Source: Escherichia phage Ec_Makalu_003
Length of the DNA stretch: 64,000 nt
Sequence record: MN882349.1
Strand: one strand, 5' to 3'
This document shows, in pieces, positions 2,455 through 58,178 of this stretch. Numbering within the stretch: position 1 is the first letter of the stretch; each line of letters starts with the position of its first letter. The translations under genes and the position numbers were made by a program. Under the pieces are notes generated by a model, which did not search any database, was not told the origin of the DNA, and worked only from the letters and a program-made list of their open reading frames with translations.

Positions 2455-2538
2455 ATAAAGCCACTCCCATAGAAAATCCGAATTTAATTAATTGAAATAG
2501 TTGATTGCTATCAACCAGATAACCATTGCGAGATTCCA
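1326..2538. repeat. 18-bp exact direct repeat aaccattgcgagattcca (1326-1343 and 2521-2538) flanking hoc
   Basis: identical 18-mer inside the hoc 3' coding end and in the hoc upstream region. Confidence 0.7.
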
Positions 2539-2549
2539 ATACATGAGTA

Positions 2550-2714
2550 TTAGAATAGTGATGTAACGAGGCCGAAATAGTATCGATCTCGTCTTGGTAT
2601 TTGTTCTGTTATAAAGTCTGCTGTACTAACAACAATCTTTAACAGAAGTGGATGACCAACGGAGCCATAAACCGGACCTTCTGTTTGATGTAATACATTG
2701 ATTTTGTTAGACAT
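2550..2714 (-). CDS. small hypothetical protein, 54 aa
   Basis: ATG at 2714 preceded by AGAGGA; lies between inh and hoc. Confidence 0.35.
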   Translation of the reverse strand: MSNKINVLHQTEGPVYGSVGHPLLLKIVVSTADFITEQIPRRDRYYFGLVTSLF

Positions 2715-2792
2715 GTAGTATCCTCTTTTAATTGCATAACGGAACTACAATTAAAATTATAACAAATATTTCACAACTTTTATCACCCAAAA

Positions 2793-3509
2793 TTACTTGA
2801 GTGTGTGGAATTGGCTATGTTTAGTCTCTCTCACCTTGACAGACCCATCGCGTTTGATATAATAGATCAGTGACTTGAGGGTGTCGTGTACATACGCGTG
2901 CGGGAAACGCTCTGGATACTTCTTCCAATCTGGAGTATTAACGATCCAGTCGAAAATCCACCACGGGCAGGAGTAGTAACCACGACCGCCACCGATCAAG
3001 CAAATGGTCGGACGGAAACCAGTAAGATCACAAAATGAATCAGTGTCATGTGCAGGAGAACGATGCTCTGCTTCGTCAGAGAAAATGTTTGCTACCGGAG
3101 ATTCCACTTTAACTTCCGGTACAACCACAATTTCAACTGGTACTGTGTGTGGTTTGGCTTCTTCTACAACTGTAACTGGTTCTTCTTTTTGTTCTGGTTC
3201 TTTCATTGCTTCAACCAGAGACGGATCAACTTCGTCGAATACCACTTTATCATCTGCGGTGTCTGCTGCCAGAATAAGATCGTTAATACTGGTTCCTTCT
3301 GCCGGAGTTTCTTCTTCCATTTCGGAAGCCAGTTTAGTTAATTCGGTTTCTACGAACTCGATCATGTTCTCTAGTGATAAAGTCTTTTTGACCTTAATAT
3401 CAAATTGTTTTGCGTAGTCAGCTAATTCTGTTTTAGCTGTTTTCTGTGCTTCTTTGTCGTCGGACGCCGCAATAGCGCGGAGTTCTTCGAAATATTCTTT
3501 ATCAAACAT
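2793..3509 (-). CDS. inh: Inh-like prohead core protein (assigned by position)
   Basis: 238 aa acidic protein in the T4 inh slot between hoc and uvsW; sequence-level identity not verified. Confidence 0.5.
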   Translation of the reverse strand: MFDKEYFEELRAIAASDDKEAQKTAKTELADYAKQFDIKVKKTLSLENMIEFVETELTKLASEMEEETPAEGTSINDLILAADTADDKVVFDEVDPSLVEAMKEPEQKEEPVTVVEEAKPHTVPVEIVVVPEVKVESPVANIFSDEAEHRSPAHDTDSFCDLTGFRPTICLIGGGRGYYSCPWWIFDWIVNTPDWKKYPERFPHAYVHDTLKSLIYYIKRDGSVKVRETKHSQFHTLK

Positions 3510-3535
3510 GCTATTCTCCTGATTGGGGGTGTTTG

Positions 3536-3543
3536 TATAAATA
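3536..3543 (+). promoter_or_regulatory. T4-type late promoter TATAAATA upstream of uvsW
   Basis: exact TATAAATA about 40 nt before the uvsW ATG. Confidence 0.5.
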
Positions 3544-3579
3544 TTTGTATACTGTATTTATTGAGTGAGGCTATTCGCT

Positions 3580-5082
3580 ATGCAAGATATTAAAATTCAC
3601 TTTCTGAACTACTCCCATGTTCAAATTGAATGTAGCGATTCAATTTTATTAGAAATGCGAGATTATTTTAGTTTTGAAGTCGAGGGAGCGCGGTTTCAAA
3701 AAAGATTTAAGTATGGCGGATGGGATGGGCGTATTCGTCTATTAGATTACAATGGAAAGTTGCCAATCGGCCTAACTAAAACCGTTGGCATCTTCGCTAA
3801 AAATATGGGTTATTCTGTTTGGGTAGACCCTCGCTTATTCGAGAAAGAACAGGTTACAGAAGAAGAGATCACAAAATGGTGTAACGACTTAGAATTATAT
3901 TCCGGTGCTAACAGGATCACCCCGCATTGGTATCAATCAAAGGCTGTCTTTGAAGGTATTCATCATAAACGCCGTATGTTAGTTTTGCCTACGTCCGCTG
4001 GTAAATCTGCGATTGCTTGTATGTTGTCTCGCTGGTACTTAGAGAACTACGAAGGGAAAGTGCTGATCATCGTTCCTACCACGTCGCTAGTGCTGCAAAT
4101 GCGTGATGATTTTGTTGATTATCGCCAGTTTCCATATGAAGCAATTCATACTATCATGAGCGGTACTAGTAAACACGTAGGTGATCGCCTGATCGTTGTT
4201 AGTACGTGGCAATCAGCATGTAAACAGCCTCGTGAGTGGTTCCAACAATTCGGGATGGTTATTGTTGACGAATGTCACAAGGCCACGGCTAAAAACCTGC
4301 TAAACATCGTTACTGATATGGATCATTGCCAATTTAAGATCGGTATGACTGGTTCCCCTCGTGACGGGAAAGCTAACATGATGCAGTATGTCGGGCTTTT
4401 CGGTGATATTTCTAAGATCGTGAGTATTGACCGCCTGATGGAAGAAGGGCAGGTGACAAAACTGAAAATTAACTGTCTTTTTCTTCGTTATACCGATGAG
4501 GAATGTAGCGCGGTTAAGGGGAGAGAATATGCGGAAGAGATCAAGTATATTACATCTAACCCACGACGTAATAAGTTTGCTTGCAATTTGGCGCTAAAAC
4601 TCGCTAAGAAGGGCGAAAACGTATTCCTGATGTTCCGCAACACTAAGCACGGAAAACTTATGTATGATGCGTTACAGAAGGTACACGACAAGGTTTATTA
4701 TATTGACGGTGGAGTTAAGACAGAAGAACGTGATGAATTTAAGAAAATGGCGGAAGGTGACACTGGCTTAATCTGTGTTGCGTCTTATGGTGTGTTCTCT
4801 ACTGGTGTTTCCATCAAGAACTTGCATCATGTTATTTTCGGTCATCCAGTGAAGGAATCAACTATCGTTCGTCAGAGTATCGGTCGTGCATTGCGTAAAC
4901 ATGGTTCTAAGGATATTGCTACCGTTTGGGATCTTATCGATCATTTGGCGGTGAAGACAAAGAGCAAGAATGCTAAGAAACAGTTTAGCCACCTTAATTA
5001 TGCTCTTAAACATGCCCTTGAAAGAATAAAAATTTACAACACCGATCGATTCGAATATGTCACGAAAACAATCGAGATTTAA
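3580..5082 (+). CDS. uvsW: UvsW DNA helicase (SF2)
   Basis: near-collinear match to recalled T4 UvsW (FSFEV..YGGWDGRIRLLDYN, LPTSAGKS, VDECH, KLKINCLFLRY); ATG 3580 with SD GAGTGAGG; the track start 3565 is a GTG. Confidence 0.9.
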   Translation: MQDIKIHFLNYSHVQIECSDSILLEMRDYFSFEVEGARFQKRFKYGGWDGRIRLLDYNGKLPIGLTKTVGIFAKNMGYSVWVDPRLFEKEQVTEEEITKWCNDLELYSGANRITPHWYQSKAVFEGIHHKRRMLVLPTSAGKSAIACMLSRWYLENYEGKVLIIVPTTSLVLQMRDDFVDYRQFPYEAIHTIMSGTSKHVGDRLIVVSTWQSACKQPREWFQQFGMVIVDECHKATAKNLLNIVTDMDHCQFKIGMTGSPRDGKANMMQYVGLFGDISKIVSIDRLMEEGQVTKLKINCLFLRYTDEECSAVKGREYAEEIKYITSNPRRNKFACNLALKLAKKGENVFLMFRNTKHGKLMYDALQKVHDKVYYIDGGVKTEERDEFKKMAEGDTGLICVASYGVFSTGVSIKNLHHVIFGHPVKESTIVRQSIGRALRKHGSKDIATVWDLIDHLAVKTKSKNAKKQFSHLNYALKHALERIKIYNTDRFEYVTKTIEI

Positions 5083-14687: not shown

Positions 14688-16739
14688 TTACATTTTAAAT
14701 TTATCCGGCATAGCGTCTACAGACACAAGATCAGCGATAAGCTGACGTAGAGTTGCCTTATCTGCTTTCTTACGTTCGGTTTTAGCTTCGGTAATGAAGC
14801 TGGAGAAAGACAGGTCAGAAGCAGGTTTAACAACACCTTCACGGATGAATGCATCACCGTCCGCGATCATCTCACCAGATTCTTGTAATGCTGCCAGTTC
14901 ATTTTTGTTCATAATATGTGCCTCAATGTAATAAGTTTCTTGTGAATCCGTCGATGCCGTAGCACGAGTTACCGTATCAAAGGATAACACAACACCGCGA
15001 GGAAGTAAAATCTCGCATTCTTTGTAAGCAAATGCTTTGTTACCTACTGGCAATACAGGGATGTTTTCCGCGCCAGCAATGGAGAAAGCAACATTAGCGC
15101 CACCTTCACCGCGAGATCCAGCCATAGAATCAACACCAGCAACGGCACTAGCCACGTTTGCATTCCATCCACCAAAAATATTAGGTGCAAGGGAAGTGCT
15201 CACATAGTTTTTAAAGTAAAACGCTTTTTGCTTACGTGCAGTTTCCCACATTTGAGAACGGAAGTCCATACCACGATACAAGATAGTACCTGGATCAAGT
15301 TTAACACCATAGTTAGCAAATGCGTTATCCAGTGCATCACACATCTTGACCAATTCTTCTGGGTCTGCGATGCCTTCAAACTCTTCCAGCTTACGGTCGG
15401 TTAGGAAGTTGTTCATATTGATGTATGCTGCATCCGCATATTCGCTCAACACAAAACCTTCCGCGCCAGGCAGATCAAGATCAATATCTGCCATCATTTC
15501 ACCCATGTTGCTAGCAATTGCTTCAAACATACCGGAAGCAACATTACGCAGGGCATCGGTTTTAATCTGCGTGATGTGACTACGCAGCATTTCAGCTTTT
15601 ACATCTGCTGGCATAGACTGGTCGACGCGATCCATTGCCAGGGCGGTGATCTTGTTTTCGAATACTTCCTCGCTCATGATTTCTTTTAAGCGTTTGATTG
15701 ATGCTGCGATAACTTCCGCAGACAACGGATCATATTGATCCTGAACTTTTACCAGTTCGCTTACTGCATATTTTGCATCGGCTTCGCTTTCAAAAATAGT
15801 ACGCATGAAACCATAGCGAGTGATAATATCACTTGTCCAGTCATTCAGAGAACGGGCGGTTGAACGTTCTAAGGCTTGACGGTCAATCAGAGTATTAAAC
15901 TGTTTCTTAGGTTCTGCTTCGGTGATATCTTCTTCCGGTTTAAGATTAATTTTTTCTGGATGATTCACATAGTCGCTGTTATAGGTCGCTTGAGTTTTCA
16001 GCATTTCTTCTTTAGTCAAACGAGATTTAGCCGCTACGCGTTGTTCTGCTTCCGCGTTTCGTTCTTCTTCCGACACAAGACTAGCCGCATACGCCTCATC
16101 TTTAGTCAGAGATTCACCAGTAGCCTTAGATACCCAGCGATCACCTAAATCACTTTCTACTTTAGTGAACAGGGATTCATCGAGTTTAATCCCTTTAATC
16201 TTATCAATCGCCATCCCGCGACGTTTGACAACAACTAAAGCGATCTTTTTGCTGGTCATTACTTCCTGCTGGAATACTTCAAACTTCGGTGTACGACGCA
16301 CCAAACGCTCTATAACGCGCTTAACCAGTTCGGTCTTACCTTTCATGCGGGATACGTTAAAACGGAACATAACAGCGTCTAATTGCGCTTTACGGGCTGT
16401 TTCCATGACCACATCAAAAGCACTTGACATAACTGCAATCGGGTTATCTCCTAGACCATTTTTAAGCTGTACAATACGACCGCTTTTGTTCATTTCGCAC
16501 AGTACAACATGTGCGGTCTTGTCACCCATACGAATGATTTTAGGTGTTTTGTTGGTGAAGTTACAAAGACGGACAATCACATCTTTATCGCGTGTCTGTA
16601 CTGCAAAAAGCTGTTTAGGATTCTGCTTAGGCTTTAAGCACTGTACCGGAGCAATACTGCCAAAGTTTTCTTCCTCTTCCGTCAACAGCCATTTCTCGAA
16701 AGATTCAATCATTAGATCGTCGATTTCTAAGTTAAACAT
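14688..16739 (-). CDS. alt: Alt ADP-ribosyltransferase
   Basis: 683 aa (T4 Alt is about 682); R-S-E motifs LYRGMDFR, YVSTSLAPNIFGGW, KECEILLPRG; T4 position. Confidence 0.8.
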   Translation of the reverse strand: MFNLEIDDLMIESFEKWLLTEEEENFGSIAPVQCLKPKQNPKQLFAVQTRDKDVIVRLCNFTNKTPKIIRMGDKTAHVVLCEMNKSGRIVQLKNGLGDNPIAVMSSAFDVVMETARKAQLDAVMFRFNVSRMKGKTELVKRVIERLVRRTPKFEVFQQEVMTSKKIALVVVKRRGMAIDKIKGIKLDESLFTKVESDLGDRWVSKATGESLTKDEAYAASLVSEEERNAEAEQRVAAKSRLTKEEMLKTQATYNSDYVNHPEKINLKPEEDITEAEPKKQFNTLIDRQALERSTARSLNDWTSDIITRYGFMRTIFESEADAKYAVSELVKVQDQYDPLSAEVIAASIKRLKEIMSEEVFENKITALAMDRVDQSMPADVKAEMLRSHITQIKTDALRNVASGMFEAIASNMGEMMADIDLDLPGAEGFVLSEYADAAYINMNNFLTDRKLEEFEGIADPEELVKMCDALDNAFANYGVKLDPGTILYRGMDFRSQMWETARKQKAFYFKNYVSTSLAPNIFGGWNANVASAVAGVDSMAGSRGEGGANVAFSIAGAENIPVLPVGNKAFAYKECEILLPRGVVLSFDTVTRATASTDSQETYYIEAHIMNKNELAALQESGEMIADGDAFIREGVVKPASDLSFSSFITEAKTERKKADKATLRQLIADLVSVDAMPDKFKM

Positions 16740-17270: not shown

Positions 17271-17302
17271 GTTTGATTCTCCTTTCGTTTCGGTATGTGT
17301 GC

Positions 17303-17331
17303 AGTATAGGGGATCGCCGATCCCCTGTCAA
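17303..17331 (-). promoter_or_regulatory. early promoter with stem-loop (PeSL)
   Basis: minus strand: TTGACA, 17-bp perfect palindrome GGGGATCGGCGATCCCC as the spacer, TATACT. Confidence 0.65.
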
Positions 17332-17338
17332 CAACTTT

Positions 17339-17857
17339 TTAGTTATTTTTTAATTGCTCATCTTGCAATAATGCAATCACATGCTGGCGATGTTCTTCCG
17401 ATTGAGGAACACCGAAAAAGTTTGTTTTGTAGAAATACTCTAATCGGTCTTCTCGTGTGCTCTCTTCCATCATGATCGCGGGTAGTCCAAGATTTCGGAA
17501 ACGTCGCTTTTCTGCTGGCGTAAAATCACTGTAATACAACATAGAATCATCATTACCAGCAATGCTAAACTCATCCTTCATAAAGGAGAATATTGCGTTT
17601 AAACGCTGTTTACCGTCCACGATTTCGATCTCATAGCGAGAGCCATCATCAATCTTAGCCATTGCGATAGCACCAACCGGAAAATCATTAATCAGGTTTT
17701 CGATAAACATACGTTTGTTTTCGGTGTCCCATACCAAAGGACGCTGATAATCTGGGTTCATGTTGATATAGCCATCTTCTAACCACGCCTCATAAACAGA
17801 GATGACAAAGTTTTTAGTATTGGTATAGTAACGGCGTTTAGGCGTTAAACGGTTCAT
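17339..17857 (-). CDS. DUF262 / ParB-like (DGQQR-type) domain protein
   Basis: motifs DYQRPLVWD and VDGKQRL; ATG at 17857 with AGGAGA inside the upstream gene end (track start 17893 is a TTG). Confidence 0.6.
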   Translation of the reverse strand: MNRLTPKRRYYTNTKNFVISVYEAWLEDGYINMNPDYQRPLVWDTENKRMFIENLINDFPVGAIAMAKIDDGSRYEIEIVDGKQRLNAIFSFMKDEFSIAGNDDSMLYYSDFTPAEKRRFRNLGLPAIMMEESTREDRLEYFYKTNFFGVPQSEEHRQHVIALLQDEQLKNN

Positions 17858-17858
17858 G

Positions 17859-18191
17859 TTATAGTCTCCTGAATGGATCATCACGTAAATCAATATCTTT
17901 TAAGAACTCATCCCATGAATGGCGGATAATGTTCTTAATTCTCCAGATAAGCGCAGGGATTGAACGCTCTCCCATCTGGAAGTAAGGATCATATGATCCA
18001 TATGCCCAATATGCTACTACAATTCCACAATCGGCGCAATAATATTCTATTTCACTTGCTGGCGACCAAAGTCCATCAATATGATCACGGATCTTGCTTT
18101 CGATGTTATGGCTATGGCAATCAGGGCAACGGATGCAATGACCTTGTTTATCGTAATTTGACGTTAGCGAATACTTAAACAATCTCATCAT
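17859..18191 (-). CDS. zinc-ribbon protein, 110 aa
   Basis: CIRCPDCHSH...YYCADCG; coupled to both neighbours. Confidence 0.5.
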   Translation of the reverse strand: MMRLFKYSLTSNYDKQGHCIRCPDCHSHNIESKIRDHIDGLWSPASEIEYYCADCGIVVAYWAYGSYDPYFQMGERSIPALIWRIKNIIRHSWDEFLKDIDLRDDPFRRL

Positions 18192-18904
18192 AGATCCTTA
18201 TTGGCTTCAAATACTGCCTTTGCGAATCCTCGCGGGGTAAGTGACCTGATAGTCTTTGTTCTGGTTCCTTTCCCGCCTAGCTTAGAATGCTGTTTACTGT
18301 ACCCTTTATTAATCTGCAACGGTTTCTTTTCTGGCATTATAAAGCCTTGTCCGGTCCATAAGCAAGTCTTTTTCGGGTACATATCACGGGCGGCAATATA
18401 CTCAGGAAACGTAGGATGCTTATCATCTTCCGGCAAATAACCGCCATATTCCCACGGATGGAACATGTAATCAGGCTTACGCCACATGCTAGAGATAACG
18501 CTTACAGGATTCTCTATCATGTAGGGAACTCCTAGCCATTCACCCAAATAAGCGGTTATTTTAGCTGCCCTTACATCATGAACTTGAATTAATGGTCCTT
18601 GTTCTCGTTTCTTTCGTTCAAAGTGCGCAGCGCCACTAACAGCTAAATTGGTGCATGGTGGGAATGCAAAGATAATATCCGGTTTCCCCCATTCAAGGTC
18701 CATTGCTCTTTCCAGCCAATTTAAATCAATCCATGTGTTTACATATGTAATGTTTGGATGTTCAAATCTGGTATTATATTTTTTGTATGTACCGTGGTCG
18801 CCATCGTCAGCATTAAAGCAGATCACCTTATGACCTGCTTTAGCCCATTCTAACCCCATTATCCCCGATCCGTCAAAGTTGCAGAATATTAATTTTTGTT
18901 TCAT
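18188..18904 (-). CDS. minimal C5-methyltransferase-fold protein
   Basis: motif I-like FCNFDGSGIMG, motif IV-like FAFPPCTNLAVSG, motif VI-like YMIENP; only 238 aa with no obvious target-recognition domain. Confidence 0.55.
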   Translation of the reverse strand: MKQKLIFCNFDGSGIMGLEWAKAGHKVICFNADDGDHGTYKKYNTRFEHPNITYVNTWIDLNWLERAMDLEWGKPDIIFAFPPCTNLAVSGAAHFERKKREQGPLIQVHDVRAAKITAYLGEWLGVPYMIENPVSVISSMWRKPDYMFHPWEYGGYLPEDDKHPTFPEYIAARDMYPKKTCLWTGQGFIMPEKKPLQINKGYSKQHSKLGGKGTRTKTIRSLTPRGFAKAVFEANKDL

Positions 18905-19146
18905 ATACGCCCCTTTAACCCAACACAGATTTTAGAAGGTTCTTTGCCGTGCCACATTAAGTAAATTCCGTTAATGCGTCCTTGTTTTGTATATGATTCT
19001 TTTCTGATCTTCTTATAGTGTCGTGCTTCCTCAGCCGATTGTTTAGAATGTCGATCATAAAGGAAGAGGAACAAAGGCCAACCATTAGCGGCCTTAATGC
19101 AGTTATTCAAAAATTCCTTATTTCGTTTAATTAATTTTCTTTTCAC
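18901..19146 (-). CDS. hypothetical basic protein, 81 aa
   Basis: ATGA-type overlap with both neighbours. Confidence 0.45.
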   Translation of the reverse strand: MKRKLIKRNKEFLNNCIKAANGWPLFLFLYDRHSKQSAEEARHYKKIRKESYTKQGRINGIYLMWHGKEPSKICVGLKGRI

Positions 19147-19394
19147 GCTGCCCCCATTGGTTTGATAGTAACAGAATCTAAAAGACCTTTGTTAGCCAGT
19201 TCGCGGCAAGTTTTCAGATCCGCAACTTCCCAGCCAGCCGCAATAAGGTTATCAATGAGGCTGTTAGCAACTTCTTCGCTCATGAAAGAGCACTGTTTGC
19301 CGATGGTGTAGCGTACACGCTGTAATTTCAGTTTACGGAAGCCTTTAACGTTCAGGTCTTTAGCGATTTTCTTTGCGGTTTCGATGTTAGCCAT
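19143..19394 (-). CDS. hypothetical protein, 83 aa
   Basis: first gene after the PeSL at 19435. Confidence 0.5.
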   Translation of the reverse strand: MANIETAKKIAKDLNVKGFRKLKLQRVRYTIGKQCSFMSEEVANSLIDNLIAAGWEVADLKTCRELANKGLLDSVTIKPMGAA

Positions 19395-19434: not shown

Positions 19435-19463
19435 ATTGTAGGGGAGTTATCCTCCCCTGTCAA
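19435..19463 (-). promoter_or_regulatory. early promoter with stem-loop (PeSL)
   Basis: TTGACA, spacer GGGGAGGATAACTCCCC, TACAAT. Confidence 0.6.
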
Positions 19464-58149: not shown

Positions 58150-58178
58150 AGTATAGGGGATCACCGATCCCCTGTCAA
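58150..58178 (-). promoter_or_regulatory. early promoter with stem-loop (PeSL)
   Basis: TTGACA, spacer GGGGATCGGTGATCCCC, TATACT. Confidence 0.65.

Follow-up and report, generated by a model that had tools for sequence, protein, structure and literature searches.

Five short genes chained stop to start in the early region of Escherichia phage Ec_Makalu_003 raise the question of whether a small C5-methyltransferase-like protein, a zinc-ribbon protein and a ParB-like DUF262 protein form one DNA-modification or anti-restriction module, or were inherited independently of each other. The whole stretch of DNA that was analysed (the window; 64,000 nucleotides of sequence record MN882349.1) belongs to a Krischvirus (RB49-like) and is 99.9% identical to Escherichia phage Ec_Makalu_002. 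As described in an earlier reading made from the letters alone (the sequence-only reading), the five ORFs are chained, all on the minus strand, through three overlaps (GTGA, ATGA and ATGA) and a single spacer of 1 nt. Counted from the upstream promoter they encode 83, 81, 238, 110 and 172 aa, and they are flanked by two PeSL early promoters (Table 1).

Table 1. Positions of the five genes and the two flanking promoters in the window.
Feature	Position	Strand	Remarks
PeSL early promoter, upstream of cluster	19435..19463	-	TTGACA, 17-nt spacer, TACAAT
83-aa ORF	19143..19394	-	function not assigned, phrog_14908
81-aa ORF	18901..19146	-	GTG start overlaps upstream stop; phrog_7065
238-aa Dcm-like phage C5-cytosine DNA methyltransferase	18188..18904	-	phrog_757
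110-aa zinc-ribbon protein (CxxC...CxxC)	17859..18191	-	phrog_2993
172-aa stand-alone ParB-DUF262 domain protein	17339..17857	-	phrog_1583
Next PeSL early promoter	17303..17331	-	ends five-gene unit, drives downstream 59-aa gene

The upstream PeSL, also noticed in the sequence-only reading, is complete, with a GGGGAG/CTCCCC stem-loop held in the spacer between its -35 and -10 elements, and the same arrangement of a TTGACA -35, a 17-nt GC-rich hairpin spacer and a -10 was found at the next PeSL. At least six clear copies occur on the same strand in the window, bordering genes or gene groups. PeSL cassettes of RB49-type phages have the same consensus -35 and -10 around a G+C-rich hairpin, and nothing about the present copies is unusual. 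Overlapping or near-overlapping junctions account for about 9 of 20 in the annotated 8.8-kb early stretch. Since tight stop/start chaining is thus the norm of the early region, chaining by itself is no evidence of a functional unit. We consider it probable that the cluster is an ordinary PeSL-bounded early unit, in which a stand-alone Dcm-like C5 methylase sits among independently inherited accessory genes. One early transcription unit in a plastic accessory-gene region of Krischvirus would string these five genes together, and the methylase would be independent of the zinc-ribbon and DUF262 proteins, their adjacency being a presumed genus-specific accident of modular shuffling.

In the 238-aa protein, the C5-methyltransferase motifs I (F10-G12-S13-G14), IV (P82-P83-C84-T85) and VI (E131-N132-P133) had been placed correctly; they stand in the canonical order and are invariant in 39 homologues. 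The catalytic PPCT is encoded by nt 18661-18650, and K178/K179 are also conserved. The protein has the C5-methyltransferase catalytic fold: its likeness to canonical C5 methyltransferases (PF00145: M.HhaI, E. coli Dcm, DNMT3A/B) lies in a Rossmann-type fold, with 180-192 superposable residues, and in the same order of the three motifs, whereas it has ENP for ENV and PPCT for PCQ, and bacterial type II methylases are longer by about 100 residues. The Thr in place of the PCQ Gln had been taken for a peculiarity, but PPCT is invariant in the 39 homologues and is therefore the family consensus. In DNMT3, too, the catalytic Cys is followed by a residue other than Gln, and the target-recognition domain (TRD) is very small. 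Contrary to the view that the phage protein has no apparent TRD, about 75 highly conserved residues (143-219), many of them at positions invariant across the 39 homologues, occupy the C5-methyltransferase TRD position, between a motif VIII-like Arg142 and a motif IX-like RSLTPRG. No similarity could be detected between this region and its counterpart in E. coli Dcm.

The Pfam matches anticipated for the two proteins divided, with DUF262 above its cutoff and DNA_methylase under it. Pfam DNA_methylase (PF00145) reached 13.9 bits (E 0.037), short of its cutoff of 22, over residues 10-100 only, and 7 of the 39 family members matched PF00145 at E<=0.01. Neither phmmer nor the family profile found a methyltransferase among PDB sequences. 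Because the PF00145 score is under threshold, it is the fold, the motifs and a characterised homologue that place the protein, not direct sequence membership; its identity as a C5-cytosine-methyltransferase-fold enzyme is supported. It matches phrog_757 ('DNA methyltransferase') at E 2e-90. Methylases of this type form a family of uniformly short proteins, with 7,317 matches in 1,161 clusters at 50% identity, and they occur in 1,524 phage records (about 3% of the 50,697 searched). GenBank records of Krischvirus already annotate the methylase, so its function is not unassignable, as had been thought. The value of the present analysis is mainly corrective, in that the 'minimal' methylase is no oddity: among the orphan methylases of enterobacterial phages, its family is one of the commonest.

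A close relative has demonstrated activity and a known liability. The 'Dcm-like C5 cytosine methyltransferase' bas06_0055 of phage Bas06 KarlJaspers is 56% identical over 238 aa (E 4e-92), and its residues C82/E128/K175/K176 align with C84/E131/K178/K179 of the Krischvirus protein. The dcm gene was studied in phage K42 (95.4% identity to KarlJaspers): the 711-bp gene alone, expressed from a plasmid, raises msDNA 5mC as measured by LC-MS, the effect needs the four residues C82/E128/K175/K176, and CCWGG specificity was assumed by analogy, not mapped (bioRxiv 10.1101/2023.08.16.553469). K42 Dcm triggers retron Ec86/Eco1 (bioRxiv 10.1101/2023.08.16.553469; restated in PMC12916289). The Drexlerviridae enzyme (KarlJaspers; K42 Dcm) and the Krischvirus copy are of nearly equal length (236 vs 238 aa), both fall in phrog_757, and they share the catalytic Cys, the ENP Glu, the KK pair and the insert at the TRD position. 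They differ in setting, the former belonging to a T1-like siphovirus with other neighbours and the latter, a predicted methylase, to a T4-like myovirus.

These comparisons suggest that the 238-aa protein belongs to the widespread phage 'Dcm-like' family and is a stand-alone C5-cytosine DNA methyltransferase dependent on SAM. Judging from motifs and fold, Cys84 would be the nucleophile, Glu131 would protonate cytosine N3, and the conserved insert of about 75 aa would recognise the site. Early in infection the enzyme most likely methylates the DNA of the phage, and incidentally that of the host, and would thereby blunt restriction. Its target site may be CCWGG, a recognition sequence so far only assumed for this compact family. 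CCWGG is depleted about 2.5-fold, and we dropped such counts as a clue to specificity because a depletion of this size is compatible with several explanations. By analogy with K42, the methylase could as a side effect be sensed by retron Ec86/Eco1.

The DUF262 assignment of the 172-aa protein was borne out by Pfam (GmrSD_N/DUF262, PF03235; 73.2 bits, well over its cutoff of 33.2, E 4e-20), by invariant signatures and by a ParB/sulfiredoxin fold that matches SspE, BrxU and ParB-N. The signatures are YQR (37-39) within QRxxxW (38-43), DGKQR (81-85) and FxxxN (142-146), with Q38-R39...W43, D81-G-K-Q-R85 and F142...N146 invariant in 9 homologues. GmrSD, BrxU, SspE and Menshen NsnA have the same ParB-DUF262 core with QRxxxW, DGxQR and FxxxN (motif definitions in PMC12065111). 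They come from host defence islands, whereas the present protein is phage-encoded, measures 172 aa and has no DUF1524/HNH, no ParBDB and no partner ATPase or effector nearby. A nuclease or DNA-binding domain was not found in it, and a DUF1524/His-Me nuclease is neither fused to it nor encoded by the neighbouring genes, so it is not a GmrSD enzyme. A split GmrS/GmrD pair was considered and rejected, since neither the neighbours here nor the gene downstream of the Matisse homologue gave a DUF1524/HNH match; the genes upstream of the RB43 and Matisse homologues encode unrelated membrane-anchored proteins. The PADLOC NsnA match spans only profile positions 47-188 of 385, and neither a ParBDB domain nor a neighbouring NsnB ATPase or NsnC effector, as in Menshen, was found. 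We propose that the protein is a nucleotide-binding ParB-DUF262 core, which most likely binds NTP and makes protein or DNA contacts and is probably not a nuclease.

The zinc ribbon of the 110-aa protein was likewise recognised correctly from its cysteine signature, with a Pfam score below cutoff. A word-indexed homologue search with this protein returned its own cluster only. Homologues are found in Nonagvirus, Felixounavirus and Autographivirales, where they adjoin DNA polymerase, dihydrofolate reductase or dUTPase genes and have no methylase neighbour.

Whether the genes belong together was surveyed by looking for partner genes within 4 kb of 80 methylase loci and 55 DUF262 loci. Partners were present at 1 of the 80 and 2 of the 55, all in Krischvirus, and co-occurrence in unrelated lineages was not found among these loci. 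The methylase homologues of T1-like phages, among others, are flanked by different genes, and the DUF262 homologues of RB43 and Matisse lack both the methylase and the zinc-ribbon partner. Within Krischvirus, methylase, zinc-ribbon and DUF262 genes are always together (about 56 records each), which leaves room for a functional link specific to the genus. It could accordingly be argued that all five make up a single module for DNA modification or anti-restriction, with the ParB-like and zinc-ribbon proteins aiding the methylase, for example by DNA targeting in trans. The translationally coupled array between two promoters and the constant presence of the trio in the genus speak for such a module, as do the fusions of a ParB-like domain with a DNA methylase that occur in other mobile elements. 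We nevertheless regard it as improbable: the co-occurrence is limited to one closely related genus, homologues of all three genes live apart outside it, the 81-aa gene is missing from one Krischvirus variant and is thus deletable, the methylase family retains its own insert at the TRD position, and the K42 methylase shows its activity by itself (bioRxiv 10.1101/2023.08.16.553469). An M.AquI-style arrangement, in which the zinc-ribbon protein would lend the methylase a TRD in trans, was discarded on account of that insert, of homologues without the neighbour and of K42 Dcm working alone. A DNA-modification or anti-restriction role, as suggested for the methylase family (PMC8594841), is reasonable for the methylase, but the five genes do not appear to be one module, and pairing the methylase with a ParB-like protein has no evident meaning when the neighbours occur together only in Krischvirus. 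The cluster looks like a methylase of known kind plus uncharacterised accessory genes, not a new DNA-modification system.

Two further readings concern what Krischvirus DNA carries and what reads it. The small DUF262 protein might be an anti-defence decoy that mimics and poisons host DUF262 sensors (GmrSD/BrxU, SspE, Menshen NsnA, PD-T4-2) and so shields C5-methylated Krischvirus DNA from type IV restriction. The protein is reduced to the sensor core, in which every nucleotide-binding motif is present, and carries no effector. In the defence library it matches NsnA (1e-20) and PD-T4-2_A (5e-12) best, and its gene lies in the early, promoter-proximal accessory region. BrxU reportedly cleaves DNA that contains 5mC, and the Krischvirus TB34, which carries the cluster at 97.9% identity, is BrxU-resistant, but the authors ascribe this resistance to unmodified DNA (PMC13390438). 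In RB43, Slopekvirus and other large phages the DUF262 homologue lacks a nearby methylase of this family, and the structural model is of moderate quality (pLDDT 72). We therefore hold a decoy role to be unlikely; bare DUF262 sensor cores occur in large phages (Krischvirus, RB43-like, Slopekvirus), and the role, if true, would be of real interest. The wider claim that the adjacency itself is functional in Krischvirus, with the ParB-DUF262 protein, perhaps jointly with its zinc-ribbon neighbour, acting as a counter-defence factor that poisons host DUF262 sensors (GmrSD/BrxU, SspE, Menshen), seems to us decidedly improbable. If it held, the phage could use cytosine methylation against classical restriction without exposure to modification-dependent enzymes or to methylase sensors such as retron Ec86.

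The methyltransferase-fold protein could also be the missing enzyme of Krischvirus cytosine hypermodification, as 5-hmdC and glycosylated dC were reported in Krischvirus SAP without known pathway genes (PMC13390438). In TB34, modified nucleosides were not detectable by HPLC/MS (PMC13390438). SAP and TB34 nevertheless have the same five coding sequences; they differ locally only by an intergenic 79-bp duplication, which gives SAP a tandem copy of the PeSL cassette just downstream of the cluster, and by two 1-nt indels. With changes confined to intergenic DNA, the cluster was excluded as determinant of the difference in modification between the two phages. The 56%-identical homologue makes ordinary 5mC (bioRxiv 10.1101/2023.08.16.553469), and the modification profile of SAP is that of seven co-isolated Tequatrovirus phages (PMC13390438), so a mixed stock is, in our view, worth excluding. 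Hypermodification by this protein thus appears very remote. The stand-alone methylase that we prefer might be compatible with the TB34 result, in that methylation at a rare site (CCWGG holds an estimated 0.5% or so of C) could escape the HPLC/MS assay.

E. coli B, the propagation host of Krischviruses, carries Ec86 natively; a literature search combining Krischvirus and retron returned nothing relevant. Residues 12-75 of the 83-aa ORF weakly resemble a segment of PADLOC RT_UG35.

The sequence-only reading had placed five chained ORFs downstream of a PeSL, the promoter-early stem-loop cassette of RB49-type phages, and all five were confirmed, on the minus strand: the junctions are, in order, GTGA, ATGA and ATGA overlaps and then a 1-nt spacer. 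Both flanking PeSLs carry a G+C-rich hairpin within the 17-nt spacer, and no promoter as good as these was found inside the five-gene unit. Since tight stop/start coupling is widespread across the surrounding early region, chaining alone is no pointer to shared function. On the minus strand of window 7236-58178, PeSL-type promoters (TTGAC, G-rich hairpin, TAnnnT) were observed in at least six clear copies, at positions 58178, 35050, 24135, 22990, 19707, 19463 and 17331, with near-identical hairpins, GGGGATCGG(C/T)GATCCCC. Such recurrence fits mobile regulatory cassettes that delimit modules of early genes. The 683-aa gene directly downstream (window 14688-16739, minus strand) encodes an Alt-like ADP-ribosyltransferase (Pfam ADPrib_exo_Tox, 5.6e-9), is annotated as an ADP-ribosyltransferase in RB49-type records, and thus locates the cluster within the region of early genes for host takeover.

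Features of the five-gene cluster and its flanks (window positions unless stated; L001 and L003 are stretches from the TB34/SAP comparison)
Feature	Position	Strand	Basis or remark
PeSL cassette bounding cluster	19463-19435	minus	near-consensus sigma-70-type promoter
83-aa ORF	19394-19143	minus	ORF call
81-aa ORF, GTG start	19146-18901	minus	ORF call
238-aa ORF (methylase)	18904-18188	minus	ORF call
110-aa ORF (zinc ribbon)	18191-17859	minus	ORF call
172-aa ORF (DUF262/ParB-like)	17857-17339	minus	ORF call
PeSL cassette bounding cluster	17331-17303	minus	near-consensus sigma-70-type promoter
Site of the 79-bp PeSL duplication of SAP	17271-17338; L003 1273-1351 vs L001 3272		intergenic, downstream of DUF262 gene

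Over the 2.8 kb around the cluster, identity is 99.9% to Escherichia phage Ec_Makalu_002 and 97-98% to some 55 further Krischvirus genomes, including GEC-3S, TB34, SAP, kaaroe and the MIZ phages. With the 172-aa protein as query, tblastn also recovered RB49 and JSE. In GenBank, Krischvirus records already have the names 'putative C-5 cytosine DNA methylase', 'DNA methyltransferase' or 'Dcm' for the 238-aa gene; for the 172-aa gene, one has 'DUF262 domain protein'.

In profile searches, the 238-aa protein matches phrog_757 'DNA methyltransferase' of PHROGs firmly (E 2e-90) and has a Pfam DNA_methylase score below threshold (E 0.037). The C5-methyltransferase-like motifs noticed earlier are present and, in an alignment of 39 family members, invariant: F10/G12/S13/G14 (motif I), P82-P83-C84-T85 (motif IV) and E131-N132-P133 (motif VI), together with K178 and R220-S-L-(T)-(P)-R-G. 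The claim that the protein has no apparent target-recognition domain (TRD) needs correcting: about 75 residues, many of them invariant, separate the motif VIII-like Arg142 from RSLTPRG, which by sequence indicates a small conserved element at the usual TRD position. The family is highly uniform in length (about 210-260 aa), with 7,317 matches in a word-indexed search and 1,161 clusters at 50% identity in an exhaustive search. Of 50,697 phage records, 1,524 carry it, from Drexlerviridae and Dhillonvirus to rV5-like and phAPEC8-like myoviruses, siphoviruses of Klebsiella and others.

One relative has been studied experimentally. In phage K42 (95.4% identity to KarlJaspers/Bas06), every isolated mutant escaping retron Ec86 had a disrupted 711-bp 'dcm' gene; this gene expressed alone raised 5mC in msDNA by LC-MS and triggered the retron, the C82A/E128A/K175A/K176A mutant did neither, and the AlphaFold model of the protein was aligned to DNMT3A (bioRxiv 10.1101/2023.08.16.553469; the retron result is restated in PMC12916289). 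Aligned end to end, the product of the 711-bp KarlJaspers 'Dcm-like C5 cytosine methyltransferase' gene and our 238-aa protein share 56% identity (E 4e-92), and C82, E128, K175 and K176 of the former align with C84, E131, K178 and K179 of the latter. The 238-aa protein therefore belongs to a family in which C5 methylation of DNA by the enzyme alone has been demonstrated; it adds a new member to this known family, which is characterised in part. CCWGG as its target site is unproven: for K42 Dcm, this specificity was taken by analogy with E. coli Dcm, with support from msDNA mutants only (bioRxiv 10.1101/2023.08.16.553469). Across the whole window CCWGG is rarer than expected (26 sites vs about 64-68), as is GGCC (38 vs 78-106), and GATC shows no depletion; the shortage may stem from restriction avoidance or from deamination of 5mC, and as a pointer to the target it is ambiguous. 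Drexlerviridae are rich in such methylases, and a counter-restriction role has been suggested, without a simple correlation (BASEL paper, PMC8594841). According to the host entries of their records, MIZ2, MIZ3 and other Krischviruses with this methylase were propagated on E. coli B; BL21(DE3), a derivative of E. coli B, natively carries retron Ec86, which a member of this family triggers (bioRxiv 10.1101/2023.08.16.553469).

Linkage among the cluster genes was examined both from methylase homologues (80 IMG/VR loci, 49-99% identity, with partners sought within 4 kb, and a profile search) and from homologues of the mini-DUF262 protein. Another cluster gene accompanied the methylase at only 1 of 80 loci, and a methylase or zinc ribbon lay beside mini-DUF262 at 2 of 55, in each case in Krischvirus. 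In T1-like phages and on a 152-kb metagenomic phage contig, the methylase homologues are surrounded by unrelated genes such as those for HNH, SIR2 and DUF3987 helicase proteins. Zinc-ribbon homologues of Nonagvirus BRET, Felixounavirus wV8 and an Autographivirales phage adjoin dUTPase, dihydrofolate reductase or DNA polymerase, and those of DUF262 in RB43 and Matisse follow an unrelated small protein; no methylase was found near any of these. Among the Klebsiella phage matches listed, genome size is about 43-54 kb or 135-150 kb for those with the methylase and about 136-177 kb, in most cases 174-177 kb, for those with mini-DUF262, and no record holds both. The array varies even inside Krischvirus, as a 150-kb IMG/VR contig (L094, positions 2519-3670) lacks the 81-aa gene, keeps only the C-terminal ~50 residues of a recombinant 83-aa gene, and has a methylase GTG start overlapping the preceding stop. 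These neighbourhoods, and the stand-alone activity of K42 Dcm, argue that accessory genes independent of one another have been strung together specifically in this genus, as would be expected of modules flanked by PeSLs. Of the earlier interpretation, the folds and a DNA-modification role for the methylase are retained, and a single system made of five genes, or of the methylase/ParB-like pair, is not.

TB34, which carries the operon at 97.9% identity, has no modified nucleosides detectable by HPLC/MS, and SAP, 99.96% identical to TB34, contains 5-hmdC and glycosylated derivatives by an unknown pathway (PMC13390438, 2026). Over 4.8 kb around the operon the two phages have identical sequences for all five genes and three differences, all intergenic: in SAP the PeSL cassette that separates the DUF262 stop from a 59-aa gene is duplicated in tandem (79 bp), and two single-T indels lie in T-runs of other intergenic PeSL regions. 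The operon therefore does not account for the modification in SAP. The published SNP analysis gave no leads (PMC13390438), and the 79-bp indel may have been overlooked or be an assembly difference. The negative result for TB34 speaks against methylation on a large scale and is compatible with methylation at a rare site; by our estimate, CCWGG methylation would affect about 0.5% of cytosines.

The assignment of the 172-aa protein to DUF262/ParB-like was borne out by Pfam GmrSD_N/DUF262 (73 bits, E 4e-20), by top PADLOC matches to Menshen NsnA (1e-20) and PD-T4-2_A, and by the domain-defining motifs QRxxxW, DGxQR and FxxxN (PMC12065111), all present and invariant in 9 stand-alone homologues. Its structure model, of moderate confidence (pLDDT 72), matches ParB-N, PadC, SspE, KorB, sulfiredoxin and BrxU. 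The protein ends directly after the DUF262 core, and domain searches found neither a DUF1524 nuclease nor a ParBDB domain in it, nor a nuclease-like product in the adjoining genes. Among large phages, RB43, Slopekvirus, Karamvirus-like phages and others have short homologues (160-180 aa), as do a few temperate phages. This uncharacterised stand-alone core is the sole component of the cluster with real discovery potential.

The zinc ribbon proposed among the five genes is seen in the 110-aa protein (phrog_2993) as a CxxC...CxxC signature, with a Pfam Zn_Ribbon_TF match below cutoff (E 4e-4). The 83- and 81-aa proteins fall in PHROGs of unknown function. Residues 12-75 of the former (window 19170-19361) resemble positions 722-785 of the 938-position PADLOC model for UG35 defence-associated reverse transcriptase, a weak but significant match (E 2.6e-5).
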